From an uncultured Acidobacteriota bacterium (lineage in GTDB: Bacteria; Acidobacteriota; UBA6911): a stretch of 64,000 nt of DNA. Shown here piece after piece: positions 12,192 to 58,833 of the stretch (its first letter is position 1; every line of letters begins with the position of its first letter). The notes beneath the pieces are model-generated. The model was not told the origin of the DNA, did not search any database, and worked only from the letters and a program-made list of their open reading frames with translations. The position numbers and the translations under genes are program-made. The stretch covers positions 608,001 through 672,000 of the forward strand of contig CAWJKZ010000014.1 in NCBI GenBank assembly GCA_963843575.1, given 5' to 3'.

Positions 12192-12779
12192 CTACGCGCT
12201 CTTGCGCAATTCGACCAACACCTGACGCGCCACGGCCTTCAGGGTGTCAAGCACGCCGGTGCCTTTGGTGGCCACCGCTTCGAAAACGGGTTCGCCTTTG
12301 ACCTGAAGTTCCTTGACCAGCGACTCTGCGGGGAGAGCGGTCGGCAGATCCCTTTTGTTCAGCTGGAGCGCATACGGCATCTTCTTCAGGTCGAAACCGT
12401 ATTCCTTCAGATTCTGGGTGAGGTTCGACATCGACTCGAGATTGGCGTCGAGCCGCTCCTCCTGCGAATCGGCGACGAACACGATTCCATCCACCCCTCG
12501 GAGGATCAGCTTCCTGCTCGCGTCGTAGAACACCTGTCCCGGGACCGTATACAGGTGAAATCGGGTACGAAACCCCCGTATCTGTCCGAGATCGATCGGC
12601 AGGAAATCAAAAAACAGGGTGCGTTCGGTCTCGGTCGCCAGCGAGATCATCTTCCCCCTGTTCTCGGGATCGGTGATCTGAAAGACGTGCTGCAGGTTGG
12701 TCGTTTTCCCGCCCAGACCGGGTCCGTAGTACACGATTTTGCAGTTGATCTCCCGTGCTACATAGTTGATGAAAGTCAA
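12192..12779 (-). CDS. mglA: Small Ras-like GTPase MglA
   Basis: [24 protein letters not shown] (intrinsic Arg finger), TVPGQ, NKRD, EAVA. Confidence 0.96.
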
Positions 12780-12781
12780 GG

Positions 12782-13315
12782 CTAGCCCTTTCGCTCAAGA
12801 GAGGATTTCGAGCCAAAGTGCCCGAAAAGATTGTCGATCTCCTCGTCGGTAAACTGGGGGGGTGCCGGACCGGTCGAGGTGGGACTGGATCCGGGATTGG
12901 CTTCATGCCTGCGCGACAGCGCCCTGAAGAGGTCATCGAGCGCCGCGGTCGCACGCTTGACTTTCCACCGTACCATCCCCAGGGAAACCGCATCGTCGAA
13001 CACAAGCACGAGCGAAAACCGCCGCGCGACGTCCGAGATGTGGATGTTGCGGTTTTTACCCTGGTGGTAAATTATTGAGAAATCGGCCTCTCCGACCACC
13101 TGCGCCAGCCCGTCGGTCGCTGCGATATTGGCGGCCGCAAGGGAGGACAGCGCCGTCAGATCGATGTCGTGTGCCGGTCCTTCCCAGGCGATCTGGTGTC
13201 CTCCTCGATCGATCAGAAGGACCATGTCCGCCCGGAGATCCCGCTGCGTTCTGACCAGTATGGCTCGCAAGCGGGAGTTCTCGGCTTCGTGCAGGACGAT
13301 ATTGCTCAGACTCAT
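12782..13315 (-). CDS. mglB: Roadblock/LC7 GAP MglB with C-terminal helix
   Basis: Immediately upstream of mglA; [33 protein letters not shown]; C-terminal [10 protein letters not shown] helix. Confidence 0.92.
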
Positions 13316-16245: not shown

Positions 16246-19152
16246 TCAGAACGAGTAGCGCAGCGCGACCTCGATCTCCCGGGCGCGGTGGGCCCCGAAA
16301 ATCTTGCCGAAGACGGAGGTGCCGTAAACCGCGTTCGGGGTTTCGAAGTTCACCTGGTTGAGGGCGTTGAACAACTCGACCCGCAACTCGACGAGATTCC
16401 CATCCGAGAAGCGGGTTTGCTTGATGACGCTGAGGTCCCAATTGACGTATGGGGGGCCCACCAGGATGTTGCGGCCCGAATTCCCATAGCTGTACGGGAG
16501 GGGCGCGGCAAAGTCTCCAGCGGAAAACCAGGCGTCGACACCCCGATCAGACGCAGCAAGGACGGCGGGGCCCAACCGGTCGGGACGGTCGTCCGACACG
16601 CCGTCGTTGTTGGGGTCTCCGCTGGATGTGACCGAGAAGCGGCTCCCCCCCTGGGCAGCGAGTGATCCCCGAGAGACGCCATCCGCTGGCGAGCTCACGC
16701 AACACCGGCCCGAGATTCCGCCCGTAAACGACCGGTCTTGCCGAACGGCAGGTCGATGATGTAGTTCAGGTAGAGCTGCCGCGCGGGCGGGTAGTCCGAC
16801 TGCGCACGCTCGGCCGCGAGGTTGCGCGGGTTCGACGGGTTCCCGTAGAAAGTGTCCCCGAGCGAAACCTGCCAGTCGAATCCTGACTTGAGGGACATGC
16901 CGTTCGAGAGCCTCCGCTCGAGCGCGAGATCGAGGCTCTGCCGGGTAAAGGCACCGCTTCCGGTAAGGATGTTGAAGCGGCCGAAATCCGGGTTCGGCCG
17001 TCTCGGCTGGACCGCCCCGGGACCGGGTAGCGGCACATTTGCGGCTATGGCTCGCGCCATGTGGACGCCCTTGCTCCCCTGGTACCACATTTCGAGTTTC
17101 CACTGCCGGAAGATCTCGTTCTGCAAACCCAGCTGCCAGTAGTGGATGTATGCCGTGCGCAGCGTGGGCTCGATCCCACGGACCGAGAGCTCGGCCGGCA
17201 CGGTGGTGGCGAAGGGATTGCCAAGGTCCAGTGAAGCCTGGTCAACGGGGGACAGTGCAGTCTGCACGTAGTAGAAAGGAAAGTTCCGCCCCAGGTAGGA
17301 AACGAAACTGTCGCGGCCGAGCGGGCTGTAGGCGAGGGAGTACGACGTGCGCAGCACGAGGCGGTTGCTGCCCGTAGGACGATAGGCGACTCCGAAGCTG
17401 GGGGCCAGGTCGTTACGATCCGGCAGAACAAGTCCCCCCTTCCCCGCCCCGCCTAGACCAAGGTGTTTCGCGTTTTCGCTTCCGGCGATCACGATCTCGC
17501 CGTCCTGGGGCGGATCGAACAGGAGCGGGATGAATCCCGAGACGTTGTTGCGCAGCGAACGAAATGGGGGGAAATAGCTGTACGTCAGTCCATACGAGAG
17601 GGACAGCCTCGGGCCGACTTTCCACTCGTCGCGCGCATACGCAGACCAGGTTCTGCGTCGCAGGTCGGACCGGTCCGAACCTATCCCGCGGCTCGCCGTG
17701 TCTGGAAGGCCGAGCAGGAAATCGGCGAAAGCGTCTCCGGTGTAATAGCCGTTGAACGAAAACCGCCCCCGGCGCAAGCCATCGGAACGGTTGTTGTTGG
17801 CCTGGATGGCGCTGACACCCAACCCGACCCGGATGGAATGGTTCGAGGGGGTGTAGGAGATTGCGCCCTCGTACTCAAACCTGTTGAGCGTCGCGGTCGA
17901 CCGGCAACCCGGAATCCCCGAATGACGAGTAGCCGGACAAGCGGAAATCGGGAAAGCCCTCCTCGTCGGGATCCTCCACCGACAGGCCCGGGATCCCCAC
18001 CGATGCAAGGAGCCCGGTCCGCCCCGCGTTCACGGAGGAGAGAAAGGTCGTGCTGCGCGCAAACCCGATCCGTCCGGTCGCAATCAGGCGGTTGGTGATC
18101 TTCTGCGTGTGCGACAAGCTCGCGTCCTGGTCGCTCGATTCGCGGCTGGAGCCGAAGGACGGTAGCGGGTGCACGAAGACGTCGTTGCCCCGTGTGAGCC
18201 AGTAGCGGACGACGTAGTTCGATCCGCCCGACAGCTGGTGATCCAACCTGACCGACCACGTGTTCCGGTTGCGCACGACCGGCTTGCTGTTGACGTAATT
18301 GCGGTCCGGATCCTCGCGGTTTGGATCCGGAAGCAGCGAGAGCAGCCCGCGGGAGACCGGGTGGATTCTCGATTCGGGGATACGATTCGCATCGAATGGA
18401 GTCGCCGTGACCGGATCGATCAGCGGTTGGGACAGACCGCCGAAGTCCCCCCGTTTCATCGCGGAGGTCGGAATGTGAGACAGCAGGGTGGATCCCTGGA
18501 CGATTCGCAGGCCCTCGAAAGTCCCGAGCACGTTGACGCTCTTCGTCACCGCGGCCGCCAGGGTAGCCCCAAACTGGTTCCGTTTGTATTCGGGCAGAGG
18601 CTCTCCGAGGGGGTCGAAGAAATTACGCGCATCGAAATTGTCGTTGCGGTGGAAGTGGTAGAGGGATCCGTGTAACCTTCCCCCTTTCTGAGCGGGAAAG
18701 GGGTTCACGATCTCCGCCGACGCCCTGACTTGCCGCGCGTCGGTCTCGCCGCCATCCCGCTCGACCTCGTAGTCACGGATTCCGGCCAGCGAGGGGTCGT
18801 TCTCCGGATCGCCCGGGGGCTCCATGCTGATGCGGGTCTCGAGGGCAACGAGACGGTTGTTCTCCGCCTGTAGCACCAGTTCCCTTTCCTCGGTCGCCTC
18901 CACCCTGATGAGGATCTCGTCGGAACCCGTGGCCAGGGAAATGGCGTAGACTCCGGCGGCGACTTCCTGCAGGAACGAGCCTTGCTCGTCGGTGCGCGGC
19001 GCGTAGCCGGCACCCGGGACGTTCCCGACGACCGAGAGAACGAGCGAGACTATGGGATTTCCCTGCCCGTCGACGACCTTTCCCTTCAGGACGGCCGCAT
19101 GCGCCTGGCCGACCAGGCACCACAATAGCGGGATCAGGAAGGTCCTTTTCAT
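16246..19152 (-). CDS. Oar-like TonB-dependent receptor-type outer membrane protein (frameshifted at least 3 times)
   Basis: Signal peptide MKRTFLIPLLW; carboxypeptidase-regulatory-like N-terminus; RNDNFDARNFFD, RNQFGA, DRNDLAPSFGVAY; C-terminal FGKIFGAHRAREIEVALRYSF. Frame breaks near 17885, 16700 and 16650. Confidence 0.85.
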
Positions 19153-19893
19153 ATGACGGGAACCCCGTTCACCATCATGTCCGAAACCGCGAAACTGGCC
19201 CGAAGGTCGGGGTCGAAGTTCGCGATGTCCAGCTCGAACGGAGACGGCGGCGTCTTCACCGGAAATCACCGGGACGCCCCCGACCGAGCGCGGAAAGACG
19301 AACTTCGCACCGACTTCGTCCTCGTGAGGCGGGAAGTATGCGGCCAGCTTCAACTGCGGGAACCGCACGGTGGAAAGGTACGCCCGCAGCCTCATCGATT
19401 CCGTCGTCTGCACTTCAAGGAATTGACGGACGCGCAACTCCACACTGGGATCGTTGGAGCGGAATCCGACGGTCAATACGATCCACCGGGAAACATCGAG
19501 CGTCAACCCAGGTTCGAGCGCCCTGTCCAGTCTCAGTTTCTCTTCCGGGGGGAGTTTGTCGTAGTTCGCCTGGATCTGGCGTACGCGGGCATAGGCCTCC
19601 CGAATGGGACGTGCGGACAGGAAACGCACGAAGAAAGTGCTGTAGATTTCCTTTTCTCCGGAGAGCCCACTGCCGATGCCGCCGAGAATGCGCGTGTAGG
19701 TCTCCTGCCTCGCCCACGGGGACCGAGTGAGCAGCGCGACAGCCTCTTGCAGGCTCAATCGCCCGAAGTCCTCCGATTTCGGCCCCTGCGCGAAAAGCAT
19801 AGATGCGCCGGCCAGCAGTATGGTCAGCAACCGGACCTTGGCATCAGGGCGAGAAAAAGCTCGAGCAGTCGTTTTACGCGAACGGAGTGTCAT
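19149..19893 (-). CDS. Exported hypothetical protein (one frameshift near 19240)
   Basis: Signal-like segment, LLTRSPWA, GAKFVFPR. Removing one base near 19240 gives ...FELDIANFDPDLRASFAVSDMMVNGVPVI* with an ATGA overlap onto the receptor start. Confidence 0.7.
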
Positions 19894-23539: not shown

Positions 23540-24751
23540 ATGGCGGGGAAGCATCAAAAGTTCTGGACGTTTGGCGGGGGCAAGGGGGGGGTCGGCAAGA
23601 GCTTCCTGACGGCGTCAATCGGGGTGGTGCTCGCCCGCATGGGCAAGTCCGTGATCGCGGTGGACGCGGACCTCGGTTCGGCCAACCTCCACACGTACCT
23701 GGGGATCAAGAGTCCCAGCCACACCCTCACCGACCTGCTGCAGCATCGCGCTTCAGTCGATCAGATCCTGCTGCCGACGCCCGTTGCGGGGCTGCGCATC
23801 ATCAGCTGCGCCGGCGATATCCTCGGAATGGCCAACCCGTTGTTCGGCGAAAAAGAAAGGATGATGAGCGTCATCTCCGATCTGGATGCCGACTACGTCC
23901 TGGTCGACCTGGGGGCCGGAACGTCATTCAATGTGCTGGATTTCTTCAATATGTCCGACGAAGGCATCGTGATCGTCTCGCCCGATCCCGCGTCGATGCA
24001 GAACGCCTATGCCTTCATCAAGAGCGCCATCTACCGGCGCATTCAGCGGCAGCTCGGGAACAACGAGGCCGTGGTCATGGCCCTGAAGCAGTCTCGCGAG
24101 ATGCCGCCGAACAAACCTCGCAGGATGGTCGATTTTTACGACCTGCTTTGCACATCGGACCCGAGAGCGGCCGAGGCGGTGGCGACACTCGTCGATGGCT
24201 ACCGGCCGATGATGATCGTCAACATGGCCGGCGCCGAGCAGGACCAGCGCGTGGCCGAGATACTTCAATCGGCGTCGAAGACTTTCCTGAACGTGGACAT
24301 CCGCTTCTGCGGCTTGGTCGCGTCCGATCCCGCCGTGCGGCGGGCATGCCAGCGCATGACGGTCCTGAACTTCGACGCCCCCGGCTGCGTCGCGGCGCAG
24401 CAGATCCGCAAGGCAGCGGAACGCCTGCTGAATTACTCGGAGCGCCGGCCCCAGGAAGACGGGAACGAGCGCCCGGTGCCCGGCACGCCGACGATGGGGC
24501 TGAACGACAACCTCGACTTCCTGGGGCGGCAGCTGCACATCCAGACCGAGGACCTCGGCTACACCGGCCGCTGCATCCAGACCCAGGTGTTTTGCGACGG
24601 CCGCGTTCTGCTCTCGACCAAGTCGGAGTATCCCGCTTCGGTGCAGCAACAGGCTGACCGCAGCCAACTGGTCGAGCTTATGCACAAACAGCACTACAAC
24701 GTCATCCGCGAGCTGGAGAGCAAGAAAGTCCGGATTCTCCGGCCCGCGTGA
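23540..24751 (+). CDS. MinD/FlhG-family ATPase with extra C-terminal (putatively RomY-like) domain
   Basis: Deviant Walker A GGKGGVGKS, VDADLGSANLH, DLGAGTS, PDPASMQNAY; C-terminal GLNDN...HIQTED...MHKQH domain. Confidence 0.85.
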   Translation: MAGKHQKFWTFGGGKGGVGKSFLTASIGVVLARMGKSVIAVDADLGSANLHTYLGIKSPSHTLTDLLQHRASVDQILLPTPVAGLRIISCAGDILGMANPLFGEKERMMSVISDLDADYVLVDLGAGTSFNVLDFFNMSDEGIVIVSPDPASMQNAYAFIKSAIYRRIQRQLGNNEAVVMALKQSREMPPNKPRRMVDFYDLLCTSDPRAAEAVATLVDGYRPMMIVNMAGAEQDQRVAEILQSASKTFLNVDIRFCGLVASDPAVRRACQRMTVLNFDAPGCVAAQQIRKAAERLLNYSERRPQEDGNERPVPGTPTMGLNDNLDFLGRQLHIQTEDLGYTGRCIQTQVFCDGRVLLSTKSEYPASVQQQADRSQLVELMHKQHYNVIRELESKKVRILRPA

Positions 24752-24770
24752 CCCGACGCCCGGATTGCCC

Positions 24771-25877
24771 ATGTCCAACAGCATTCCCCCGACGATACTG
24801 ATCGTAGACGACGAGCCGCACATTCGGGAAATTCTCGCCCACAACCTCTCTGGCAAATATGGGAAGTGTGTCATTTCGCACAGCGCCTTCGACGCCCTGA
24901 ACAAGGTAAAACACAACCTGTTTTCACTCGTGATCACCGACATCATGATGCCGGGCATGTCCGGAATGGAGCTGCTGCGCTTCGTCAAGAAGCACAGCCC
25001 CGACACGGCCGTCATCATGATCACGGGGGTGATGGACATCTCGGCGGCGGTGGACTCCCTGCGCAGCGGCGCGTGCGACTTCATCACGAAGCCGTTCGAC
25101 CTGCTCTCGCTGCGCCGCGCCGTCGACGGGGCCCTGGAACGGCGCCAGCTCCAACTGGAAAACCGTCACTACCAGGAGGAGCTCGAGAGAAAGGTCGAGG
25201 AGCGCTCGATCGAACTGAAAGCCGCGCTTCACGACGTCGAAGAGAGCTACCGGATGACACTGGAGGCGCTGGTCAGCGCGTTGGACGCACGCGAACACGA
25301 GACCCAGGCCCACTCCCAGCGGGTGCGTGCCTACACGCTCGCACTGGCGCAGCGGATCGGGTTCCCGCCCGACGAACTCGTGAACATCGGGCGCGGCGCA
25401 CTCCTGCACGATGTCGGGAAAATGGGGGTACCCGATTCGATCCTGCTGAAACCGGGCCGGCTCACGGCCGAAGAGTGGTGCGAAATGCGCCGCCACCCCT
25501 CCATCGGCTACGACATCCTGCGCAACATCAGTTTCCTGGCCCCGGCCGCGGAGATCGTCCTGTGTCACCAGGAGCGGTGGGACGGCACAGGGTATCCGGG
25601 GCAACTCGGCGAAGCGGACATCCCCCTCGGGGCACGCATCTTCGCGGTGGCCGACACGTTGGATGCCATGACGAGCCACCGCCCCTACCGGAAGGCGATG
25701 TCCTTCCAGACCGCCGCGGAGGAAGTCCGGCGCTGCGCCGGGACGCAGTTCGATCCGTACGTCGTCGAAGCCTTCCTGAGCGTGTCGCTTGACTTCTGGG
25801 AAAGCATTCATGAGGACGTTGCCCGCACAGCCCGGGCGGACGGATGCTACAATGTGATATGCCGCAAGCAAGGGTAG
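24771..25877 (+). CDS. Response regulator with HD-GYP c-di-GMP phosphodiesterase domain (RpfG-like)
   Basis: LIVDDE, TDIMMPG, KPF receiver; HDVGK, HQERWDGTGYP, RPYRKA. Confidence 0.93.
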   Translation: MSNSIPPTILIVDDEPHIREILAHNLSGKYGKCVISHSAFDALNKVKHNLFSLVITDIMMPGMSGMELLRFVKKHSPDTAVIMITGVMDISAAVDSLRSGACDFITKPFDLLSLRRAVDGALERRQLQLENRHYQEELERKVEERSIELKAALHDVEESYRMTLEALVSALDAREHETQAHSQRVRAYTLALAQRIGFPPDELVNIGRGALLHDVGKMGVPDSILLKPGRLTAEEWCEMRRHPSIGYDILRNISFLAPAAEIVLCHQERWDGTGYPGQLGEADIPLGARIFAVADTLDAMTSHRPYRKAMSFQTAAEEVRRCAGTQFDPYVVEAFLSVSLDFWESIHEDVARTARADGCYNVICRKQG

Positions 25878-26800
25878 TCCCGATCAACCATTCGCAGCGC
25901 GAGTCGATCCGAGCCCTGATGCTCGAGGAGGAGGCGGCGTGGTTGGAGGACTTGTCCTGGGACTACGCGCCGATCCGGCAGATCCTCTTCTCTTTTCTCG
26001 AACAAGACCTCCTTCCCGGGTATGTTGCCCTGGACGGGAATCGTCCCCTCAGCTACAGCTACTATCTCTCGCACAATCGGAAAGGGATTGTCGGCGCACT
26101 ATACGCCGCGAGGGCCGAGCACGCGCAGGAAGTCGCGCTCGACGTCCTCGGCCGGGTGCTGGAATCGCTGAAGGGACCCGAGACGGCGCGGCGCATCGAA
26201 GCCCAGCTCATGCCGTTTCACCACCTCAACCCGACGCCGGCATTCACCCGCTTCGGATTTCAGCACTACACCCGCTACTTCGTCGAACTGCAGCTCGATC
26301 AGTCGGAGTGGCACCGCGCCCAACCCCGCTCCGGGCACATCGCACCCTGGGATTCGGCCTTCCTCCGGTTGGCGGCCGACGTCGCCTTCAGGAGCTACCA
26401 GGACCAGATGGATGCCCTGATCTGCGAGGACTACTGCTCGACGGCGGGATGCGAGGGGTACCTGCGCAGCCTGGTCGAGAATCCCGGGTGCGGCGTTTTC
26501 GTTCCTGGCGCTTCGTTCCTGGCGCTGGACGGTCGCGGCCTGCCTTGTGGCTTCATCATTGGCTCCCGGATATCTGCAGGCGCCGGGATGATTCCGCAGG
26601 TTGCCATGCTCCCCTCGTTCCAGGGTCAGGGTCTCGGCAACGCCCTCATGCGCCACGCTCTGTTTGCGTTCAAGGCGCTCGGATACCGTACCGTGAGCCT
26701 CACGGTGACCAAGAAAAACCGCCGCGCCTTCGAATGGTACCAGCGCCTAGGATTCAAGCTGCGCAAGGAATTCGGGGCATACGTGTGGAACCGGGGCTGA
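25844..26800 (+). CDS. Tandem GNAT N-acetyltransferase
   Basis: FQGQGLG acetyl-CoA motif, LTVTKKN, WYQRLGF; degenerate N-terminal GNAT domain. Confidence 0.85.
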   Translation: MLQCDMPQARVVPINHSQRESIRALMLEEEAAWLEDLSWDYAPIRQILFSFLEQDLLPGYVALDGNRPLSYSYYLSHNRKGIVGALYAARAEHAQEVALDVLGRVLESLKGPETARRIEAQLMPFHHLNPTPAFTRFGFQHYTRYFVELQLDQSEWHRAQPRSGHIAPWDSAFLRLAADVAFRSYQDQMDALICEDYCSTAGCEGYLRSLVENPGCGVFVPGASFLALDGRGLPCGFIIGSRISAGAGMIPQVAMLPSFQGQGLGNALMRHALFAFKALGYRTVSLTVTKKNRRAFEWYQRLGFKLRKEFGAYVWNRG

Positions 26801-26801
26801 G

Positions 26802-27620
26802 CTACTTCGGCTCGAGCTCCGCATAGCGGGGATCCAGGACGACCACATCGACGCGGCGGTTTTTCGACCTTCCCTCCTCCGTGTCGTTGGTCGCCACGGG
26901 CCGGTATTCGGCATAGCCGGCGGCGGACATGCTGTCCGGGGAAAGGCCGAACTGAGTCACCAGGTAGGCCACGATCGCCGTGGCCCTCGCGGTGGAGAGC
27001 TCCCAGTTGGAAGGGAAACGGGAGTTGCGGATCGGCACGTTGTCGGTGTGACCCTCGATCCGAATGTGATTCTGTGCCGAGGTCAGTCCGGTCGCGATGG
27101 CGTCGAGGAGTCTGCGCCCCTCGGGCTTGATCTGGTCGCATCCCGAATCGAAAAAGCCGCCCTCCCCAAGGCTGATGATCAGGCCCCGCCCCTCCAACCG
27201 GGTCCGGACCATGGCGTTACGCAGCGCCTCCGGCCCCACCAGCGACTCGATGCTGCGCTTGAGCGCGCCCAGCGCGCCCCCCGGCTTTCCCCCAGGCCCG
27301 GGAGAAAAACCCGCCCGCAGCGCGTGGTCCCGCAGCGCTCCTTCCTTCGAAACGGTTATGGTGGCGGCAGCCTCTTTCCCTCCCTCCTTGCCGTTCCCCT
27401 CGCCTTTGCTCAACGAGAGCGTGCTGCTGCCGGTTTCGAACATGGTGCTGTCGAAGGAAGCCCTCATGGACTGGACCATCTTCCCCATTTTTTGTGCGTC
27501 CACGGTCGAGATGGCGTAGAGCGTGGTAAAAAAAGCGAAGAGGAGAGTGATGAAATCGGCGTAGGAGACAAGCCAGCGCTCGTGGTTCACGTGCTCCGGC
27601 GCTTTCTTCCTGCGGCCCAT
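26802..27620 (-). CDS. motB: Flagellar stator MotB
   Basis: WLVSYADFITLL TM with conserved Asp; OmpA-like domain GHTD, NWELS, NRRV. Confidence 0.95.
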   Translation of the reverse strand: MGRRKKAPEHVNHERWLVSYADFITLLFAFFTTLYAISTVDAQKMGKMVQSMRASFDSTMFETGSSTLSLSKGEGNGKEGGKEAAATITVSKEGALRDHALRAGFSPGPGGKPGGALGALKRSIESLVGPEALRNAMVRTRLEGRGLIISLGEGGFFDSGCDQIKPEGRRLLDAIATGLTSAQNHIRIEGHTDNVPIRNSRFPSNWELSTARATAIVAYLVTQFGLSPDSMSAAGYAEYRPVATNDTEEGRSKNRRVDVVVLDPRYAELEPK

Positions 27621-27647
27621 GCTGGACTCCCACTCGAGGACTGGACG

Positions 27648-28445
27648 TTACGCGGCTTTCTTGTGCGCCGACTCCGCCGCGGCGGCGGCCTCCTCCTGTT
27701 CCTTCCGGCTGAGGAAGCTCTTGAGCTTGTCCTCGATGAGGCGTGGATTCTCCCCTTCCAGGATGGAGATGACCCCGATGAGCATGATCTCCTTGGCGAC
27801 CATCAGGGAGCGCGTCTTCTGCTTGAGCTTGCCCGAGATCGGGAGGTAGAACACGTTCGCGGTGACCAACCCATACACGGTGGCGACGAAAGCCACAGCG
27901 ATGCCGCTGCCGAGTTTGCTGGGGTCGCTCAGGTTCTCCATCACGTGGATCAACCCGAGCACGGCGCCGATGATGCCGATGGTGGGCGAGTAGCCGCCCG
28001 CAGACTCCCAGAACTTGATGGGGTGCTCGGCTTCGTCCTCGATGTTGGAGATCTCCATCTCCATCGTCTCCCGGAGGATTTTCGGTTCCACCCCGTCGAC
28101 CGCCATCGTGAGTGCTTTCCTGAGGAACGGGTCGGTGGATTCCTGCATCTCCGCCTCGAGCGAGATGATCCCCTCCTTGCGGGCTTTCATGGCGAACCGG
28201 ATGATCTCGGCGATCACTTCCCTGTTGTTCACCTTCCGGTCCAGGAATGCCTGCTGCACGGCTTTGAAGCTCCGGACCACCACGGGGAGGGGAAACTGAA
28301 CCAGGCACGCTCCGAAGGTCCCACCGATCACGATGATAGCCGCCGTCGGTTGGAGGAGCGAGTGGACGTTGCCCCCCTCGAGCGCCTGGCCGCCAAGGAT
28401 GGCGCCTAACGCCAGCAGAATCCCGAGAATGGTAGCCAGATCCAT
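27648..28445 (-). CDS. motA: Flagellar stator MotA
   Basis: ARKEGIISLE, GGYSPTIGIIGAVLGLI, AVAFVATVYG, GENP. Confidence 0.95.
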   Translation of the reverse strand: MDLATILGILLALGAILGGQALEGGNVHSLLQPTAAIIVIGGTFGACLVQFPLPVVVRSFKAVQQAFLDRKVNNREVIAEIIRFAMKARKEGIISLEAEMQESTDPFLRKALTMAVDGVEPKILRETMEMEISNIEDEAEHPIKFWESAGGYSPTIGIIGAVLGLIHVMENLSDPSKLGSGIAVAFVATVYGLVTANVFYLPISGKLKQKTRSLMVAKEIMLIGVISILEGENPRLIEDKLKSFLSRKEQEEAAAAAESAHKKAA

Positions 28446-28459
28446 CGTTGCTCCCCGAA

Positions 28460-28696
28460 TCAGTCTGCCGCGTCGCCTGCCGGCACGCGCCGGATGTTTC
28501 TTTCCGCCTCCACAAGTCCGGCGACGGTCTTGCGGTACGCCACGATCTTCTGGATGATGTCGGCCATCGACTGCTGGACGACGACCTTGTCGCCGGTCGT
28601 CAGGGTGATGACGGAGTCCGGCGTCTCCTCGATGTACTCGATCAGATCGCAGTTGACCGCGATCGGGGCCTTGTTGATCTTCGTCAGCAGTATCAT
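28460..28696 (-). CDS. flbD: Flagellar FlbD family protein
   Basis: MILLTKIN...NCDLIEYIEETPDSVITLTTG; located upstream of motA. Confidence 0.88.
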   Translation of the reverse strand: MILLTKINKAPIAVNCDLIEYIEETPDSVITLTTGDKVVVQQSMADIIQKIVAYRKTVAGLVEAERNIRRVPAGDAAD

Positions 28697-28742
28697 ACGG
28701 TCATGGGCGTTTGAACCCGTCGGGCATATCGGCAACCGAGCC

Positions 28743-29459
28743 TCATCGCCTTAGGCTCGAGGCGGCGGCCGCCTGCAGGTACCTGGCCAGCGGCACGGGG
28801 GACCGTGCCTCGGGCACGCGCTGGATCAGCTCTTCGACCGCGATAAAGTCCTCCGGCGTGTCCACCGTGATGCGCAGTTCCGGCTGCCGCATCGCGTCCG
28901 GGGGTGCCAGGAGCGCGAACCGGAAGCGCTCCGGGTGGTGCTTCACATACAGGGTCACGTGCTCGCGGTGATGTGCAAGAGTCGCCTCGCGTTCGACCCT
29001 CGTCAGTGCCTCCGCCGTAATGGCCTCGGTCGCGGCGCCAACCGGCAGATCGGCTTCCATGCAGTAATCGAGCTTGCTCGTGCGGACGGCCCGGACGATG
29101 CGGTCGGCAGACCCGAAATCGACGAGCGGGTTGTCCGCGGTGGCCCGGATGATGATGCCCGGTCCGAACCGCTCGGAAGCCTGCTGGTACCGCTTCAGGA
29201 CGTCCAGCGACGGGCCCCGGTGCACCCGTGTCCCGAGGCGCTCGCATTCCCTCTCGACGGCGTCGTCCTCCTCCAGCGTTGTGGTCAGCACGATCACCTC
29301 GTCCACCGTCCGAGCGGCGCCCAGACGCCAGATGGCCCGTTCGAGGAGTGAGCGCCCCTGTATGCGCAGCAGCACCTTTCCGGGAAGCCGCGTGCTTCCC
29401 ATCCTGGCCTGCAGATACGCATGAACTGTCCCGGGCAACGGGGGTCCTCCCCTTGGCAT
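28743..29459 (-). CDS. SpsF/PseF-type cytidylyltransferase (CMP-nonulosonate synthetase family)
   Basis: QARMGSTRLPGKVL, DVLKRY, RATADNP, HREHVT, RITVDTPED. Confidence 0.88.
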   Translation of the reverse strand: MPRGGPPLPGTVHAYLQARMGSTRLPGKVLLRIQGRSLLERAIWRLGAARTVDEVIVLTTTLEEDDAVERECERLGTRVHRGPSLDVLKRYQQASERFGPGIIIRATADNPLVDFGSADRIVRAVRTSKLDYCMEADLPVGAATEAITAEALTRVEREATLAHHREHVTLYVKHHPERFRFALLAPPDAMRQPELRITVDTPEDFIAVEELIQRVPEARSPVPLARYLQAAAASSLRR

Positions 29460-29512
29460 CAAGATCTCTCATCGACACGAGGCCTGGAGCGCGGGCTGAG
29501 AAGGCCCGCTGT

Positions 29513-30226
29513 TCAGGCCGGCTGGAACTCGGCGCTTCTCGCCTCATACTCCTGCTGGGCTAGCTCGCAGTCTTCGCGCCGCCCTATGTCCCGCCAATAA
29601 TCCCCGGACGGATACCCGACCACCTTCTCGCCGTTGTCGAGCAGGCGCACGACGAGGTCGGGGAAATCCAGGTAGGAGCCCGCGTCGATGTAGCGCAGAA
29701 CACGGGGCTCATAGACGTAGACGCCCATGCTCACATCGAAGCAATAGAGCGGCTTCTCCCTGTAGGCAACCAGACGTGAGCTCTCATCGGTCTCCAGCAC
29801 ACCCAGGTCGATGCGGACTTCCTTCCGGTGCATGGCGATCGTCAAGGCGGCCCCGGAATCGCGGTGAAAGCCGGTCAGGACCCGGCAGTCCAGAGTGGTC
29901 AGCACGTCCCCGTTCATGGTCAGAAAGGTCTCGTCCAGACCCGGGATCATCGCCAGGGGGCCGGCGGTGCCCAGGGGCTGCCGTTCCCGATAGTAGCTGA
30001 GGTTCAGCCCGGGAATGCTCTTGTGCCCGTTCTGAAAATAGGCTTCGATCAGCTCGCCCAGGTGGCCGACCGAAAGGCAGATGTCGCCGATACCCTGCCG
30101 CACCAGCTGCCGGATCATGATCTCCAGGATCGGGCGCTCGCCGATGGGAACGAGGGGTTTCGGGAACACGGTCGTATAAGGCGCCAGCCTTGTCCCCTTC
30201 CCTCCTGCCAGGATGATGGCCTTCAT
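29513..30226 (-). CDS. Sugar-phosphate nucleotidyltransferase
   Basis: ILAGGKGTRLAPYT..PKPL, PLGTAG, NGD, WRDIG. Confidence 0.9.
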   Translation of the reverse strand: MKAIILAGGKGTRLAPYTTVFPKPLVPIGERPILEIMIRQLVRQGIGDICLSVGHLGELIEAYFQNGHKSIPGLNLSYYRERQPLGTAGPLAMIPGLDETFLTMNGDVLTTLDCRVLTGFHRDSGAALTIAMHRKEVRIDLGVLETDESSRLVAYREKPLYCFDVSMGVYVYEPRVLRYIDAGSYLDFPDLVVRLLDNGEKVVGYPSGDYWRDIGRREDCELAQQEYEARSAEFQPA

Positions 30227-31263
30227 GAGCGCACCTCCGCGACGACCGGGTCGGCCGCCGCTCCCGAAGCACTTTCGACCGCGTCGCACGACGTCTCGCT
30301 GCGGTCGGGCAAAAAGATCGCCGACTCGTAGCACGCCATCAGGAGCCCGTCGGTGAATTTCCCGATGCACGGATTTACCCGCCTGCCGCAGCGCATCTCG
30401 ACGAGCCAGGCCGGAAAATCCGCTCCCGCGGCGATCGTCAGGGGAATGCCCCCGGAGAAGCGCGGATTGACCTCGAATATGGTGGCCTCACCGCCTTCGT
30501 ACATCACCTGGATGTTGGCGGGGCCGCGAATCTGCAGCGCCTCCGCGGTGCGCGCCCCCAATTCGATCAGCCGCGGGTTATTCCAGGTGCGGCCGCGGTC
30601 GGTCACGCCGGAGCGGATCACCAGGCGCTCCCTGGGAACGACGCTGACGATTCTCCCGCTGAAGTCCGCGAGCACGTCGATGGTGAACTCGCGGCCAGCC
30701 AGGAACTCCTGAACCACGGGCTCGCGGACGGCATCGAGATAGAAGCGGAGCTCCCGCTCGTTGTATACGGGATGAGCCCCGACGCTACCACGGCCGGAGC
30801 GAGGCTTTAAGAAGAGTGGGTAACCTAGCGAGAGGAAGTCCAGGTCCGCGGGCAGCCACGTGCGTGCGGCCGGAAGACCGTGGTCCAGGAGAAAACGCGA
30901 GGTGAGCTGCTTGTCGTTGCAGATGGCGCCGGTTTGCGCGCCGGACACCGCCACCCGCACATCCATCTTCAGAAAGTCCTCCGCATACGCCCCGAACAGG
31001 GGCAGTTCATCGTCGATGGTCGGCACGAGCAGGTGTATCCGCTCCTTGAAGCAGATCGATTTGATCATCGGGATGTAATCAGGGTCGGTCGTCAACGGGA
31101 CGAGGTAGTGACGATCGCTGAAATAGAGGCCGGGGCTCAGCGTATTCATGTCGGTGGTGACAACGTTCCCCTGGAGACTCAGCTTCTCCAGGGCACGCAC
31201 GAACGCCTGGATGAGAGGAACCCGGCGGCTTGCTGCGGTAATCAGGATGTTGACTTCGCGCAT
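30223..31263 (-). CDS. ATP-grasp protein (CPSase-like/PylC-like N-terminus)
   Basis: NILITAASRR, PTIDDEL, CNDK, KPRSGRGS, QEFL, EVNPRFSGG. Confidence 0.9.
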   Translation of the reverse strand: MREVNILITAASRRVPLIQAFVRALEKLSLQGNVVTTDMNTLSPGLYFSDRHYLVPLTTDPDYIPMIKSICFKERIHLLVPTIDDELPLFGAYAEDFLKMDVRVAVSGAQTGAICNDKQLTSRFLLDHGLPAARTWLPADLDFLSLGYPLFLKPRSGRGSVGAHPVYNERELRFYLDAVREPVVQEFLAGREFTIDVLADFSGRIVSVVPRERLVIRSGVTDRGRTWNNPRLIELGARTAEALQIRGPANIQVMYEGGEATIFEVNPRFSGGIPLTIAAGADFPAWLVEMRCGRRVNPCIGKFTDGLLMACYESAIFLPDRSETSCDAVESASGAAADPVVAEVRS

Positions 31264-51072: not shown

Positions 51073-51954
51073 TCAGACACCCCCGGAAGCAAAGGCGAAG
51101 CGCGTTTCCGGGATGCAAGGGACGCCTAGCCCCGCCTGCGGGCCGCCGAGGTGGCACACGTGCTCCGAGCGCCCCGCACAGTCCATGCGCACCCAGAGAC
51201 ACCCCTCGAGCAATTCCATCTGCAGGTTCTCGGCCCGGCGATCGTATGACGTCCTGATGACACCACTGACAATTTCGTGTAACTCCGGCAATGATCCGAA
51301 GCACCCGCAGTCGGACAAATCGAGATCAGAGGGGTCGTACCAGTGCTCGATCAGACGGTCGATGGCCGACACGTCACCAAGATAGGCGGCCACGTCGCTG
51401 CGCAACATCCGGCGCATCCCCTCGTGCAGGAAAGGGCTGACCGGGGCGGTAACCGCAAGGAGCACGGAGCGCTTCTTGTCGTCGTAGCCCACCGCCAGGG
51501 CCCGGGCGCATTTCGCCACCCTGCCGGGGACCAGGTCGGCGGACGGCGGACGGGGATCCGCCTCGCTCAGCTTCAGCAGCGGAAGCCCGAACTGCCGGGA
51601 AAGGGCGACTGTGACCTGGTGCTCCTCGAGAAATCCGAGGCGGATCAGCCACTCCCCTATGCGCCCCTGCTGGGTTTGGCGCTGGCGTGCCACGGCCAGC
51701 TGCAGCTGCTCGGGGGTGATCAGTGCATGATCCAGCAGGATCGACCCGAGGCGCGGGCGCGGGAAGCGCCGTTCCCGCTCCAGGAGCAGGCGCTTCCACC
51801 GGCCCGTCAGGTCGTTCCTGACCTGCGTTTCAAGGCACGCCAGACTGCAAAACGAGTCCCCGTTGAACTGCGGCACCCTGCGCCGGCTCAACAACAGGCT
51901 GAACTCGGAGCGGGTTCGTCCACATCCCTTGCGCTGGCAGCTAGCTTTGACCAT
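51073..51954 (-). CDS. Zn-finger plus MshEN (GspE/PilB N-terminal) protein lacking an ATPase domain
   Basis: CxxxxC...FCSLAC; RLGSILLDHALITPEQLQLAVARQ / RIGEWLIRLGFLEEHQVTVALSRQ tandem motifs; no Walker A. Confidence 0.8.
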   Translation of the reverse strand: MVKASCQRKGCGRTRSEFSLLLSRRRVPQFNGDSFCSLACLETQVRNDLTGRWKRLLLERERRFPRPRLGSILLDHALITPEQLQLAVARQRQTQQGRIGEWLIRLGFLEEHQVTVALSRQFGLPLLKLSEADPRPPSADLVPGRVAKCARALAVGYDDKKRSVLLAVTAPVSPFLHEGMRRMLRSDVAAYLGDVSAIDRLIEHWYDPSDLDLSDCGCFGSLPELHEIVSGVIRTSYDRRAENLQMELLEGCLWVRMDCAGRSEHVCHLGGPQAGLGVPCIPETRFAFASGGV

Positions 51955-54654: not shown

Positions 54655-55563
54655 TCAGTTGACCCAATCATTGAGAAGTTTTTCCCAGACGAGGCTGTCG
54701 ACGGCCGGCAACGACGACCCTTGCCGGGCGACCGCCCGTGCGAGAACTCGGAAACACCGGCTGGCCGGAGAGTTGGGGTAGCGCTGGCTCACCAGCACCT
54801 GACTCCGGACAGCCTGGGGCACATGCGCGTCGCGCTCGATGTGCCCGAGGTACTCGACCTCGCGGTTGAGAAATCGCTTCACTACCGAATTGATCTGCCT
54901 GAACACGTCCCTCGCCTCGTCCCCGTGGCGGACGGAGTTGATGAGGACGCTGACCTGCTTCTGCGGCTGTTCTGCAAGGATGATCTTGACGACCGCATAG
55001 GCATCGACAATCGCGGTCGGCTCGGGATCGCTCACGACGACCACTTCGTGGGCCGAGCGCAGAAAGTGCGTGACGTTGCGGGAAATGCCCGCGGCGGTGT
55101 CGATGATGAAGAAGTCGCTGTCCCTGTCGAAATCGGCGAAGCTCTCGACAAGGTGGTTTCGCTGTCCAAGAGTCAGTTCCGAAAGCCGCTGCAACCCGGA
55201 ACTGGCCGGGATGACCCGGAAGCCGTTGGGGGCGTCCACGATGATCTCCGAGAGGCTCTTGTTGCCGAACAGCACGTGCCCCAGGTGAAACCGCGGGGTC
55301 AAGCCCAGCAAGATATCGAGATTCGCCAACCCGAAATCCGCGTCCAGCACGACCACCTTCTTGCCCAACTCCGCCAGGTTCGCCGCCAGGTTGGCCACCA
55401 CGTTGGTCTTGCCGACCCCGCCCTTGCCGCTCGTTACGGCGATGATCCGGGTCCCGGCCTGCCTCTCGGTCGACGCGGTTGTTCCCTGCCCCGATGTACG
55501 TTCCAGGGTGGCCGCCTGGTGGGGGATGCGATTCGAAACTTCCAACTTCCGTGGTTTTTCCAC
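54655..55563 (-). CDS. flhG: FlhG/FleN MinD-like ATPase
   Basis: SGKGGVGKT, DADFGLAN, DTAAG, PEPTAIVDAY; located between flhF and fliA. Confidence 0.93.
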   Translation of the reverse strand: MEKPRKLEVSNRIPHQAATLERTSGQGTTASTERQAGTRIIAVTSGKGGVGKTNVVANLAANLAELGKKVVVLDADFGLANLDILLGLTPRFHLGHVLFGNKSLSEIIVDAPNGFRVIPASSGLQRLSELTLGQRNHLVESFADFDRDSDFFIIDTAAGISRNVTHFLRSAHEVVVVSDPEPTAIVDAYAVVKIILAEQPQKQVSVLINSVRHGDEARDVFRQINSVVKRFLNREVEYLGHIERDAHVPQAVRSQVLVSQRYPNSPASRCFRVLARAVARQGSSLPAVDSLVWEKLLNDWVN

Positions 55564-55576
55564 TTGAGACTCCGTG

Positions 55577-56700
55577 TCAGGCGTCTTTCAGGACGATGTC
55601 CAGGATGCGTTCCTTCGGCAGCACGTGGATGTCTTCGGGCACGCGCTGGCCGTCTGTGTAGAACGACAGCGGCATCCCCGTCCGGACGAGCTCGTTGAAG
55701 ACCGGGCCGAAGGCCCCCGTCTCGTCCAGCTTGGTAAACAGGAGGTGATCCGGCTTGCAGGGACCGAATCGCGTCACGATCTCTTCCAGATCGGCGGACC
55801 TCGTCGTGGCGCTCAAAACGAGGTGCCGTTCCATGTCCGGCGCAACGCCGGCCAGGTCCGCCAGAGCGCCTATGGCTGCGCTGTCCCTGGGTGCCCGGCC
55901 AGCCGTGTCGATCAGGACGTAGTCGCGCCGGGAGTGCTCTTCGAGCGTGGCCCTGAGACCGTCAAGGTCCCTCGCAAACCGGAAAGGGACCCCGATCAGG
56001 GAGGCGTAAGTCCGCAACTGCTCGACCGCGCCGATACGGTACCCGTCGAGCGTCACCAGCACGACGCTCCGTCTCTTCTGAAGGGCCAGGCGCGCGGCCA
56101 GTTTCGCGATCGTGGTCGTTTTGCCAACGCCCGTCGGCCCTATGAACGCGACGAGGCGCTTGCCCGGAAGTTCTTCCCCGTTGCGCCCGAGATCAACCCG
56201 CCGGAGAGGGAGTTCAAGGCCGAGAGCAACGCGGCGCGATGACGCCGCCGGGGGACGTCGAGCATTCGGACCGATTGCCTGACCAGCCTTCGGGCGAGCC
56301 AGGCGTGAACTCCGGCCGTGACCAGATCGCGGTACAGCACGGCGGCCGTGCTGGCGCGCTGCTGCGCGGTTCTTTTCGTCGTGGAGGTCGCCTGCCCGGG
56401 GATCCCGCGCAGTGAAGCGGGGGTGTACAGGTCGGGGTCGGCCTCGGCCGGCGCACGGTCAGGACCGTCGACTGCGGCTGGGTTGCTGCCCTGGGACGCT
56501 CGCGGCGCTTTCGCAGGTCCCCTGAAGAGTTCCACCCCGTCGCAATTGTCGGCCGCGGCAACCACCTCGACGGTGGTCTCGCCGCCCGACCGGGAGGGTT
56601 TCTCCTTAGTGGAAAGCAGCAGGGCATCCGGGCCGAGTTCGGCCTTGATGTCTCGCAACGCCTCAGCCATTGTCCGGGCGTAGAAAGTCTTGATCCTCAT
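55577..56700 (-). CDS. flhF: SRP-type GTPase FlhF (frameshift near 56150)
   Basis: MRIKTFYA..ELGPDA N-terminus; GPTGVGKTTT, DTAG, TKLDE and GQRVPED in the shifted frame. Confidence 0.9.
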
Positions 56701-56701
56701 C

Positions 56702-58784
56702 CTAGCTCACCATCCCCACTGAAAGGACCCGGACGTTTGGCGGTATCTCGCTGTGCGAAAGGATGGCCACGCCCGGCAGATAGCGTTCGAGCAGCTGCCT
56801 CACATACATGCGGACGTTCGGCGAGCAGAGGATCACGGGGCTTGCTGAACCGGCCGCGGACTCGAGGGTGCGCCGGAAGCGGCTCATGATGTCCTTGGCC
56901 TGCCGAGGTTCCAGCGCCAGGTACGCTCCCTGGTCGGTGTGCACCACGCCGTCGGTTACCGCCTTCTCCAGTTCCGGGCTCACCGTGAACACGGGCAGTT
57001 CGCCGCTGTCGTTCTGGTAGGGCCGGCACAGCGAACGGGCCAGGGCCTGGCGGCAGTACTCGGTCAGCAGACCGATGTTTTTCGTGAAGGATCCGTAGTC
57101 GGCCAGGGTCTCCAGTATGGAGACGACGTCCCGGATGCTGACGCGCTCCTTGAGCAGATTCTGGAGCACCTTCTGCACCTCGCCGATCGAGAGCACTTTC
57201 GGCACCAGCTCCTCCACCACCTTCGGGTGCGTCTCGGCCACGGTGTCGAGCAGGCTCTTGGTTTCCTGACGTCCGAGCAGTTCGTGGGCGTGCGACTTGA
57301 TGATCTCGGTGACGTGCGTGGCGAGGACCGTTGTGGGGTCCACGACGGTGTAGCCCGCAAGCTGTGCACGTTCGCGGTCGCTCGATTTGATCCATCGCGC
57401 CGGCAAGCCGAATGCCGGCTCCCGCGTGACCACGCCGCTGAGTTCCTCGCGCGCGGTCCCCGGGTTGATCGCGAGCAGATGTTCCTGGAACAGTTCTCCC
57501 CGGGCGATCTCGACACCTTTCAGCAGAATCGAGTACTCCTTTGCGCCCAGCTGCAGGTTGTCGGTTATGTGAACCGGGGGCACGACGAGGCCCATGTCGA
57601 GCGCGATCTGTCGGCGGATGGACTTGATCCGGCCGAGGAAATCGCCACCCTGGCTCGCGTCGACGAAACGGATCAGGCCATAACCCACCTCGACCCCCAG
57701 CAGATCCACCTTGAGCAGGGATTCGATCTTTTCCTTCGGGCGCTCGGCCTCGGCCCGATCAGCCTTGTGCTTTTCCAGCAGCACCCGCTCCCCTTCCCGC
57801 AGGCGTCTGGTGCGCACGGCCATGATCCCGGTCATCGCCGCCAGCAGGAAGAACGGGGGGCCTGGGAGGCCGGGCACGAGGCCGAAGAAGAACAGAAAAC
57901 CCGAGCCGATGGCGATCGGGATGTGGTTCTTGAACAGCTGGCTCGCGACGTCGTCGCCCAGGTTTGCGTCCGAGGCCGCGCGCGTCGTGATGATGCCCCC
58001 TGCGACGGAGATCAGCAGCGAGGGGATGGCGGTCACCAGTCCGTCTCCGATCGTGAGCACCGTGAAGCGCTTCGCCGCCTCGGCCAGATCCATGTCGAAC
58101 TGAAAGACGCCGATGAGGAAGCCGCCGACAATATTGATGGTGAGGATGAGCATGCTGGCGATGGCGTCGCGGCTCGTGAACCGGATGGCCCCGTCCATGG
58201 CCCCGTAGAACTCGGCCTCCTTGAGAGACCATCTCGCGGCGCGCACGCGCCTCGTGTTCGTCGATCAGTCCCGCACTCAGGTCGGCATCGATGGCCATCT
58301 GCTTGCCGGGCATCGCGTCCAGGGTGAATCTGGCGGTGACTTCCGATATGCGGACGGAACCGTGGTTGATGACGATGAACTGAATTCCTATGAGGACCAG
58401 GAAGACGACGATACCGACGAAGTAGTTGCCGCCGACCACGAACTGGCCGAACGACTGGATCACCCTCCCGGCCGCGTCCTCCCCCTCGGATCCGTGCAGC
58501 AGGATGAGACGGGTCGACGCCACGTTCAGGGCGAGCCGGAAAAGGGTGACGATGAGGAGAAGCGACGGGAACACCGAGAAGTGGACCGGCTGCAGAATGT
58601 ACATCGAGACCAGCAGAATCAGGATCGAGAGGGTGATGTTCAGGCTGATCAGGAGGTCCATCGCCATGGTCGGCATGGGCAGCACCATGACAACCAGTAT
58701 CCCCATCACCGCCACGGGAACGATCAGGTGGACCTTGCCGAGGATTTGGGCGGGGCTTGAAGTGGCACTCTCTGCGACGCTCAT
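56702..58784 (-). CDS. flhA: Export gate protein FlhA (frameshift near 58225)
   Basis: [24 protein letters not shown], then EFYGAMDGA and TIGDGL in the next frame. Confidence 0.93.
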
Positions 58785-58833
58785 CGAACTTCCTCGATCT
58801 CCAGAGGGTTGTCTGCTGTTCGGAAGGCATTAA

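Follow-up and report, generated by a model that had tools for sequence, protein, structure and literature searches.

A single organism has provided what is known of RomY, a small co-GAP (GAP, GTPase-activating protein) that stands alone and whose polar action relies on low-affinity binding to MglB. In Myxococcus xanthus, it acts as a co-GAP of MglB on MglA; the M. xanthus protein is the only one assayed for this activity, part of it is carried by the N-terminal domain alone, and residues 7–90 are predicted with high confidence to form a compact globular fold (PMC9481161). The co-GAP role is upheld in work from 2026 (PMC13408092). The printed distribution of RomY, taken from the legend of S1 Fig, comprises Myxococcales, Bdellovibrio, and two Deferribacteres (PMC9481161). 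Here, we describe a conserved gene that combines a ParA/MinD-type ATPase with a RomY N-terminal-type domain (RomY_N) in a 64,000-nucleotide stretch of DNA (hereafter, the window) of an uncultured soil member of the Acidobacteriota (GTDB lineage UBA6911; assembly GCA_963843575.1, contig CAWJKZ010000014.1, positions 608,001–672,000). An earlier note on the window, drawn up without database searches, had presented the gene as a candidate new system. Its premise that RomY stimulates the GAP activity of MglB agrees with what is in print on the co-GAP role (PMC9481161, PMC13408092). Its wording was too strong in calling the system new; what is new about the fusion is the architecture in which a known domain appears, one among several RomY_N architectures.

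The nearest parallel is the Min system, in which the positional ATPase MinD carries MinC, an inhibitor that acts on FtsZ, to a particular place. The logic proposed below for the fusion resembles that of MinD and MinC in that an ATP-dependent dimer of the ParA/MinD type would present a regulator of another nucleoside triphosphatase (NTPase). Whereas the Min ATPase and its regulator are two proteins with FtsZ as their target, the fusion is one polypeptide, and its presumed target, unlike FtsZ, is a Ras-like GTPase with a Roadblock GAP. In the fusion, for which amphipathicity was not computed, no MinD-type membrane helix was found. A literature search brought up no account of a RomY domain in fusion with a ParA/MinD ATPase, with the reservation that the supplementary lists of RomY homologues in PMC9481161 may hold some; the word "fused" is absent from the accessible text of that paper. 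Functional work on MglA in Acidobacteria was likewise not found in the literature. The conserved fusion suggests a different solution to the problem of where MglA is switched off and would, for the first time, point to a coupling of a positional ATPase with a Ras-like polarity GTPase within the same protein. It should be of interest to the field of bacterial polarity, although it is not a categorically new system.

A RomY-type domain behind a ParA/MinD-type ATPase

The fusion gene occupies positions 23540–24751 of the forward strand (stop codon included) and encodes 403 amino acids. Its open reading frame (ORF) is uninterrupted, starts with ATG, and has a G+C content at third codon positions of 0.86, which is typical of real genes in the window (G+C content, 63%). 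An AlphaFold2 model based on 61 homologues (mean predicted local distance difference test score, pLDDT, of 84) consists of three parts. The ATPase (residues 1–302; 23540–24445) is delimited by Pfam matches, relatives in the PDB, and the model, which has pLDDT values of mostly 82–97 in the core (residues 1–301). The last core helix (residues 284–301) is followed by a disordered, flexible linker (residues 303–317; 24446–24490), whose pLDDT is below 50 and whose length varies among the homologues (gaps in columns 301–370 of alignment A3). The linker leads into the RomY_N domain (residues 318–394; 24491–24721), which is delimited by a curated domain model and the structure models. It is compact, with four strands followed by one long helix (residues 321–393); the same elements are present in a model of the domain alone (60 sequences; pLDDT 88.7).

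The identity of the C-terminal domain is most evident from the NCBIfam model RomY_Nterm (NF053858), which matches residues 319–394 (24494–24721) over model positions 3–78 of 83 with a score of 63.8 bits (E = 1.5e-17; curated cut-off, 50). A six-frame search of the 6.68-Mb genome with the same model matched a single place (67.1 bits), and none of 14 control genomes gave a match. The domain is also 36% identical over 74 residues (BLASTP, E = 2e-13) to the RomY orthologue of Corallococcus coralloides (L141; 190 amino acids), which was found with NF053858 at 136.8 bits. Both results confirm what the earlier note had proposed, namely that the C-terminal ~85 residues match RomY's N-terminal domain. 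In an alignment of 60 sequences of the domain, which takes in RomY-like proteins with a C-terminal LDE.IL.YL motif, H333, Q335, T336, E337, G354, and H385 are invariant, and G320, N322, G329, T348, M381, and Q384 are conserved in at least 90% of the sequences. The fusion thus shares with RomY not only the domain but also its invariant G-x-N, H-x-Q-T-E, G, and Q-H positions.

The overall organization differs from that of RomY. Whereas the domain is N-terminal in RomY, it stands at the C terminus of the fusion, behind an ATPase of ~300 residues; the tail of RomY with its C-terminal LDE.IL.YL motif is absent, and the score of 63.8 bits amounts to roughly half of what classical RomY-like proteins reach (100–137 bits). 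With the domain at residues 319–394 of 403 and no LDE.IL.YL-type motif after it, the fusion gene is not classed as a RomY orthologue. Pfam has no model that matches the last ~100 residues of the fusion protein, and in a sequence search of the PDB, the ATPase part alone matched and no solved relative of the RomY_N domain was found. A Foldseek search of the PDB with the domain model gave no match at E ≤ 0.001; the best match was a pseudopilin (3cfi_A; E = 0.048, template modelling score 0.41).

The N-terminal part matches the Pfam models CbiA, ParA, and AAA_31 above their cut-offs (residues 11–268), and its best solved relatives are FleN (5j1j; E = 1.6e-23) and FlhG (4rz2; E = 7e-19), followed by MinD. 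The deviant Walker A motif (G12-G-G-K15-G-G-V-G-K20-S21; 23573–23602) provides both the signature lysine (K15) and the P-loop lysine (K20), and the acidic residues D42/D44 and D123 are also present, which places the protein in the ParA/MinD superfamily. In the 61 fused homologues, D123 never varies, and the conservation of K15, K20, S21, and D42 is 90% or higher. With FlhG and FleN, the fusion shares the deviant Walker A motif with its signature lysine, the closest relationship in sequence among solved structures, and the presence of flagellar genes nearby. It differs from them in its position outside the flhF-flhG-fliA arrangement, in a helical insertion of ~50 residues, and in its C terminus, which consists of linker and RomY_N domain instead of a short terminal helix. 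The insertion (approximately residues 162–223; 24023–24208) interrupts the alignment with FleN between residues 161 and 224 (170 and 182 of FleN), with ~62 residues in the fusion against ~11 in FleN, a net gain of ~50; in the model, the region contains helices at residues 150–172, 176–187, 196–206, and 208–220. The same insertion is present in unfused relatives of the ATPase and is specific to this subfamily.

The earlier note had described the protein as a second, FlhG-like ATPase in addition to a canonical flhG at position 54655. The latter assignment is correct: the flhF-flhG-fliA position of the window's flagellar cluster is occupied by a separate paralogue (54655–55563, reverse strand; MinD-type matches in Pfam and NCBIfam), which lies between an SRP54-type flhF fragment and fliA. 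The fusion protein itself is not an orthologue of FlhG but belongs to a distinct ParA/MinD subfamily with the helical insertion; it is 33% identical to the window's FlhG, and this over residues 12–172 only.

The architecture is conserved well beyond the window. A search of 5.8 billion proteins yielded 2938 homologues of the fusion protein at E ≤ 1e-5. The best 120 of these are mostly ~400 residues long and cover 93–100% of the query, except for about ten shorter fragments (57–91%), and full-length homologues reach 89% identity at 100% coverage. Such names as they have are limited to "P-loop NTPase", "flagellar biosynthesis protein FlhG", or "hypothetical", and the fused proteins still go by "P-loop NTPase" even though NCBI has a curated model of the domain. 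The named homologues stem from metagenome-assembled genomes (MAGs) labelled Acidobacteriota, Nitrospirota, "Deltaproteobacteria", and "Proteobacteria" (summarized as deltaproteobacterial or Myxococcota). The C-terminal RomY_Nterm match was above the cut-off in all ten homologues sampled across these four phylum labels, and our own hidden Markov model (HMM) of the domain detected it in each of the 61 rows of alignment A2. Within the window's family, a frame of 396–471 codons surrounds the domain in 16 of 37 genomes, 13 of which were verified by sequence as ATPase plus domain. In two genera of the family, the domain stands alone at the same position, in frames of ~107–180 codons.

An assembly or frameshift error that joined two genes would produce such a fusion spuriously, and other genes in the window do look split (a TonB-dependent receptor in two frames; truncated flhA and flhF), as do many genes in the closest genome (L091). 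Errors of this kind split genes and do not fuse them in frame, and the same single frame recurs both in the 13 family genomes checked by sequence and in independent metagenome proteins from several phyla. On the strength of these sequences, an artefact can be regarded as effectively refuted, its probability being close to nil. Among sequencing runs, none contained half of the words, and the largest share in a DNA run was 0.21; parts left without cover carry no information. The library X15 of a sediment metatranscriptome contains a single 228-nucleotide contig identical to positions 24282–24509, which runs from the end of the ATPase across the linker into the first 19 nucleotides of the domain. 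This contig documents presence in an RNA library only and is no evidence of transcription, because an RNA library can contain DNA.

In a quick maximum-likelihood tree of 110 ATPase domains, the FlhG of the window forms a long outgroup branch. All but one of the 32 fused rows fall into one group of 34 (Shimodaira–Hasegawa-like approximate likelihood ratio test, SH-aLRT, 85), which includes two fused clades, one acidobacterial (24 rows) and one of delta type (six rows), each with a support of 100. The unfused ATPases of ~300 residues form a separate clade (48 rows; SH-aLRT 98) with members from Myxococcus, Corallococcus, Anaeromyxobacter, Bdellovibrionota, Nitrospirota, and other Acidobacteriota. 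The remaining fused protein, from a MAG of Nannocystales (L071), is placed outside the main fused group, so a single origin of the fusion is not established. The unfused subfamily (Myxococcota, Bdellovibrionota, Nitrospirota, and others) has the helical insertion in common with the fusion, and its identity to a fused query is 30–46% over residues ~5–300; it differs in lacking RomY_N and in being often followed by a gene that, by eye, is of the J-domain/helix-turn-helix type. We know of no experimental work on it. When contigs were searched with the fused proteins (alignment A3), the 80 loci kept from at least 600 matching stretches comprised 79 ATPases without a significant RomY_N domain and a single one, L071, that has it; by eye, no candidate for the domain was present in 76 of these 80 loci.

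Three rows inside the fused group count as "unfused" (Myxococcota; L067:4854–7847, L074:9908–11494, and L078:9902–14419). Their proteins (529, 998, and 1506 residues) have very long, acidic or proline-rich linkers of low complexity and, by eye, a divergent C-terminal stretch of the type "...LHVQT.DL...". Among the three, our domain HMM saw L067 alone, with a non-significant score (11.9 bits, E = 0.09).

Co-occurrence with MglA and MglB and modelled docking

The predicted target of the domain, the Ras-like GTPase MglA (195 residues; 12192–12779, reverse strand), is recognizable by a weak Pfam match to Arf and by its N terminus and P-loop (MTFINY...GPGLGGKTT); it is 72–95% identical to the MglA of 20 relatives. 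The predicted co-target, MglB, is a Roadblock-domain GAP of 177 residues (12782–13315, reverse strand; Pfam Robl_LC7, alignment A5) with an acidic C-terminal helix; the NCBIfam model of MglB scores 64.8 bits, below its cut-off of 200.

The RomY_N domain tracks MglA across genomes. Among 61 relatives, RomY_N was found in 37 and MglA and MglB in 49 each; both proteins are encoded in 36 of the 37 RomY_N-positive genomes. Among 151 sampled genomes of Acidobacteriota, 105 have RomY_N and, by a reading of two result tables, all 105 have MglA; MglA was detected in 114 at E ≤ 1e-40, nine of which lack RomY_N, and 37 have neither. A phylogenetic profile, which the earlier note had named as a check of its idea, has the RomY_N-positive genomes, with one exception, nested within those that carry MglA. 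The same is true of the fusion, which does not occur mostly in genomes that lack mglAB: MglA is present in 16 of the 17 genomes with a frame of fused length. These counts come from relatives that are not independent of each other and describe a pattern, not a statistical test. Three MglA-like genes are present in the Nannocystales genome that carries a fused gene, with 71% identity for the best of them. A second, divergent mglB-mglA pair has a RomY_N gene directly upstream of it in another family of the class (L110:7978–9970 in genome G039; L139:7236–8074 in G042). The product of this RomY_N gene has 282 residues, scores 45.3 bits, just under the cut-off, and has no Pfam match in its remaining part; the MglA of this pair is 44% identical to that of the window.

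Modelling of the domain on an MglA/MglB complex points in the same direction. The input consisted of two copies of MglB (21-row alignment), one MglA (21 rows), and GTP, and the domain (10 rows) was scored as their partner; three runs gave interaction prediction scores from aligned errors (ipSAE) of 0.69, 0.72, and 0.70, with at least 52% of the contacts in common and a partner pLDDT of at least 76. The best of three controls, two with unrelated partners and one with MglA replaced, reached 0.01. Of 80 solved complexes, 58 attained the pass mark, as did 2 of 110 mismatched pairs; these counts are only roughly applicable to a model with its own alignments and a GTP ligand. Since no solved structure resembles the domain, the pass is unlikely to reflect memory of a solved complex.

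In the model, the domain sits over the nucleotide pocket of MglA, beside one MglB protomer. The confident interface on MglA, with 21 listed residues, falls in the P-loop (21–24), 49, 51–53 (including R53), 82–84 (including Q82), 106–115, 142–147 (the NKxD region), and 171; that on MglB comprises five residues of one protomer (39–41, 54, and 57). On the side of the domain, residues 318–324, H333, Q335, E337–L339, Q349, F351, D353–V356, and S359 are involved. They include the conserved G320, N322, H333, Q335, E337, and G354; among them are 6 of the 11 positions invariant in alignment A1 and 4 of the 6 invariant across 60 family members. The predicted arrangement matches the published description for M. 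xanthus, in which RomY's N-terminal domain, modelled with AlphaFold-Multimer, contacts MglA close to the nucleotide pocket and a single MglB monomer (PMC9481161). RomY and the fusion are therefore alike both in their co-occurrence with MglA and MglB and in the place at which the domain is modelled. Binding to MglB, as the earlier note had it, is borne out in part: the domain is modelled on MglA-GTP:(MglB)2 with an ipSAE of 0.70 against 0.01 in the controls, but its confident contacts are mostly with MglA, and binding to MglB alone is less supported.

A proposed tethered co-GAP and its alternatives

We propose that the fusion is a tethered co-GAP, in which the RomY_N domain engages the MglA-GTP/MglB complex and the ATPase sets where or when it does so, an account that we think has an even chance of being right. 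The idea of the earlier note, that a positional ATPase delivers GAP stimulation to MglAB, is likewise a conjecture. The domain would dock on MglA-GTP:(MglB)2, over the nucleotide pocket of MglA and against one MglB protomer, and would probably raise MglB-dependent GTP hydrolysis, as does the RomY of Myxococcus. The flexible linker would tether it to the ParA/MinD-type ATPase, which probably dimerizes on ATP and would thereby control the place, time, or valency of presentation of the co-GAP domain. The most likely output would be motility polarity: the genome encodes flagella and type IVa pili, and the conserved gene block includes a response regulator with an HD-GYP domain (RR-HD-GYP; cyclic di-GMP, c-di-GMP), a GNAT-like protein, and motAB. 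The co-GAP activity, its ATP-dependent control, and the motility output are inferred; the docking is modelled, and the domain identities, the conservation of the fusion, and its co-occurrence with MglA/MglB are shown by the data. Since both type IVa pili and flagella are present, either could be the output of MglA.

A wider interpretation, which is tentative and which we think rather unlikely to hold in full, is that a ParA/MinD-type ATPase directly gates a Ras-like GTPase and that RomY_N is a portable module for engaging MglA/MglB, which has been placed under different controllers. ATP-dependent dimerization or surface binding would then decide where the tethered co-GAP can engage MglA-GTP/MglB, and in bacteria with both flagella and type IV pili, the fusion would set which pole is "off" for MglA. 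The module would extend over ~3,400 protein clusters, with the ATPase, a receiver domain, or tandem repeats as controllers. If gating is true, the two main NTPase systems that organize bacterial cells in space would be hard-wired into one protein.

Several findings weigh against a tethered co-GAP. With 60–75 bits, the domain scores far below the classical RomY-like proteins of the same phylum (100–120 bits), and fused and solo forms of the window's family range from 47 to 75 bits with NF053858; the RomY_N of this family is a divergent branch, whose partner could have shifted. The presence of the domain alone at the same locus implies that the ATPase is dispensable for the domain's role; the ATPase looks like an added layer of control on the domain, and the solo forms may have arisen by its loss. 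ATP turnover does not seem to be universally kept among the fused homologues: a Walker A lysine is replaced in P0058 and P0089 (GKGGVGTS, GSGGVGKS), and in one genus (L004, L006), the DxD motif has a D-to-N exchange (VDANL for VDADL), which suggests changes in ATP binding or hydrolysis in some fused lineages. In the complex model, MglB alone is insufficient, and the replacement of MglA lowers the score to 0.01; the binding partner that the model supports is thus the MglA-GTP/MglB complex and not MglB alone, and the score expresses the confidence of a model, not a measurement. One genome with a frame of fused length showed neither MglA nor MglB (G027; 92% complete, 8% contamination, 720 contigs). 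Finally, the constant neighbour of the fusion is not mglAB but the GNAT-like gene, which is adjacent or one gene away in all 17 family loci. The mglBA genes lie 10.2 kb upstream, separated from the fusion by genes for a tetratricopeptide repeat protein, a GlmU-like protein, a TonB-dependent receptor, a signal peptidase, a radical-SAM protein, and a von Willebrand factor A (VWA) protein; the distance of 10 kb in the earlier note is accurate, and the two loci are linked but do not form one operon.

In an alternative view, the RomY_N domain serves as a targeting tag. The tag would bring the ATPase to a pole marked by MglB/MglA, where it would position or count a cargo such as the flagellar basal body, the stator, a chemoreceptor array, or the pilus machine, with GAP stimulation being secondary or absent. 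ParA/MinD ATPases usually act on their cargo via an adaptor, the closest solved relatives of this one are the flagellar regulators FleN and FlhG, and its locus has a conserved position beside motAB-flbD and the flagellar cluster; in one genus, the solo form comes after cheW and cheR. Docking on MglA/MglB would suit a tag as well as a co-GAP. What makes a tag unlikely is the way in which the modelled domain covers the catalytic R53 and Q82 and the P-loop of MglA, which suggests an effect on hydrolysis and not mere tethering. Moreover, RomY's N-terminal domain has measured co-GAP activity (PMC9481161), and the persistence of solo forms without the ATPase at the same locus indicates that the domain has a function of its own.

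The divergence of the domain could instead mean that this branch has left MglA/MglB and works with its neighbours, the GNAT-like protein and RR-HD-GYP, in a c-di-GMP or acetylation module that controls the flagellar motor. Such a module is favoured by the presence of the GNAT-like gene in all 17 family loci and of RR-HD-GYP in 12 of them, by the tight arrangement of genes on one strand that overlap or are 13 nucleotides apart, and by an HMM score below that of classical RomY, as well as by the single RomY_N match per genome, with no other copy found in the family. We nevertheless consider it an unlikely explanation: RomY_N is nested perfectly, or nearly so, in genomes that bear MglA, and the residues that are invariant across the whole family are kept and form the modelled MglA interface. 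In addition, the synteny, seen in loci of the window's family, may be specific to this lineage.

Gene neighbourhood and the wider RomY_N family

The apparent operon partner of the fusion gene encodes a response regulator with an HD-GYP-type HD domain (24765–25877, forward strand; Pfam Response_reg and HD_5/HD). It begins 13 nucleotides downstream on the same strand, and its best match in NCBIfam, below the cut-off, is a NosR-family response regulator c-di-GMP phosphodiesterase. It overlaps the gene of the GNAT-like acetyltransferase (318 residues; 25844–26800, forward strand; Pfam Acetyltransf_1 at residues 214–304). Convergent with this operon, motB, motA, and flbD (26802–28735, reverse strand; Pfam MotB_plug/OmpA, MotA_ExbB/MotA_N, and FlbD) mark the start of the flagellar region, which the earlier note had correctly placed 2 kb downstream of the fusion. 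The flagellar cluster of the window further comprises flhB, flhA, the flhF fragment, flhG, fliA, fliM, fliD, and flgK; in the genome, one PilB and two PilT ATPases of type IVa pili are above their cut-offs.

The gene order in 17 loci of the window's family is signal peptidase, radical-SAM protein, optionally VWA protein, ATPase-RomY_N or RomY_N alone, optionally RR-HD-GYP, GNAT-like protein, and motB/motA/flbD, with mot genes within the fetched stretch in 13 of the 17. One solo-domain gene is preceded by cheW and cheR. The VWA gene next to the fusion matches the acidobact_VWFA model, which agrees with the named homologues (Acidobacteriota, Terriglobia) as to the phylum of the window. By its conserved synteny, the fusion may be linked to the flagellum.

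RomY-type domains are far more widespread than their printed distribution (see above) and occur in several architectures. When 1.84 billion cluster representatives were searched with a profile of ten domain sequences, 3374 proteins matched at E ≤ 0.001, of which 2305 were at E ≤ 1e-10. Among the best 150 of the 3374, the domain is mostly N-terminal, as in RomY (proteins of 83–399 residues); 13 have it at the C terminus (362–409 residues), and five have three tandem copies (P0133, P0136, P0147, P0160, and P0161; ~300–320 residues). The RomY_N genes of Acidobacteriota are mostly classical RomY-like genes with frames of 205–340 codons and scores of 100–120 bits.

A weak RomY_N-like stretch with the motif "...FQ[IV]QTE..." is present in proteins of ~370–460 residues with an N-terminal receiver domain from other families of Acidobacteriota (L131:6510–7793, L132:4118–5224, and L133–L136). 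It scores 28–35 bits with our HMM, below the NCBIfam cut-off, and Pfam matched the receiver domain alone, with nothing in the middle region, where by eye a known domain had been suspected. The genomes that encode these proteins also have a classical RomY-like gene (e.g., G071).

Among the unfused relatives of the ATPase in MAGs labelled Myxococcota and Spirochaetota, the next gene in L017 and L082 has, by eye, a J-domain-like start and a RodZ-like helix-turn-helix; in L072, such a J-domain-like/RodZ-like segment appears by eye in the same frame as the unfused ATPase.

In the window, genes for a cytidylyltransferase, a nucleotidyltransferase, and an ATP-grasp protein (28743–31263, reverse strand) lie between flbD and the flagellar genes, a position that is conserved in relatives; they are possibly involved in flagellin glycosylation. 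An ORF of 293 codons in the flagellar cluster (51073–51954, reverse strand) resembles the PilB model over the initial ~140 model positions (E = 1.2e-10), which correspond to the N-terminal domain of type II/IV secretion ATPases, and lacks the ATPase part.

Several genes of the window look split or truncated, probably by frameshifts in the assembly. The TonB-dependent receptor lies in two overlapping frames (16695–19893, reverse strand), flhF is a GTPase fragment of 161 residues (55577–56700, reverse strand), and flhA matches model positions 157–656 only (56702–58830, reverse strand). In the closest genome (L091), the GNAT-like gene, motB, and motA likewise look split.

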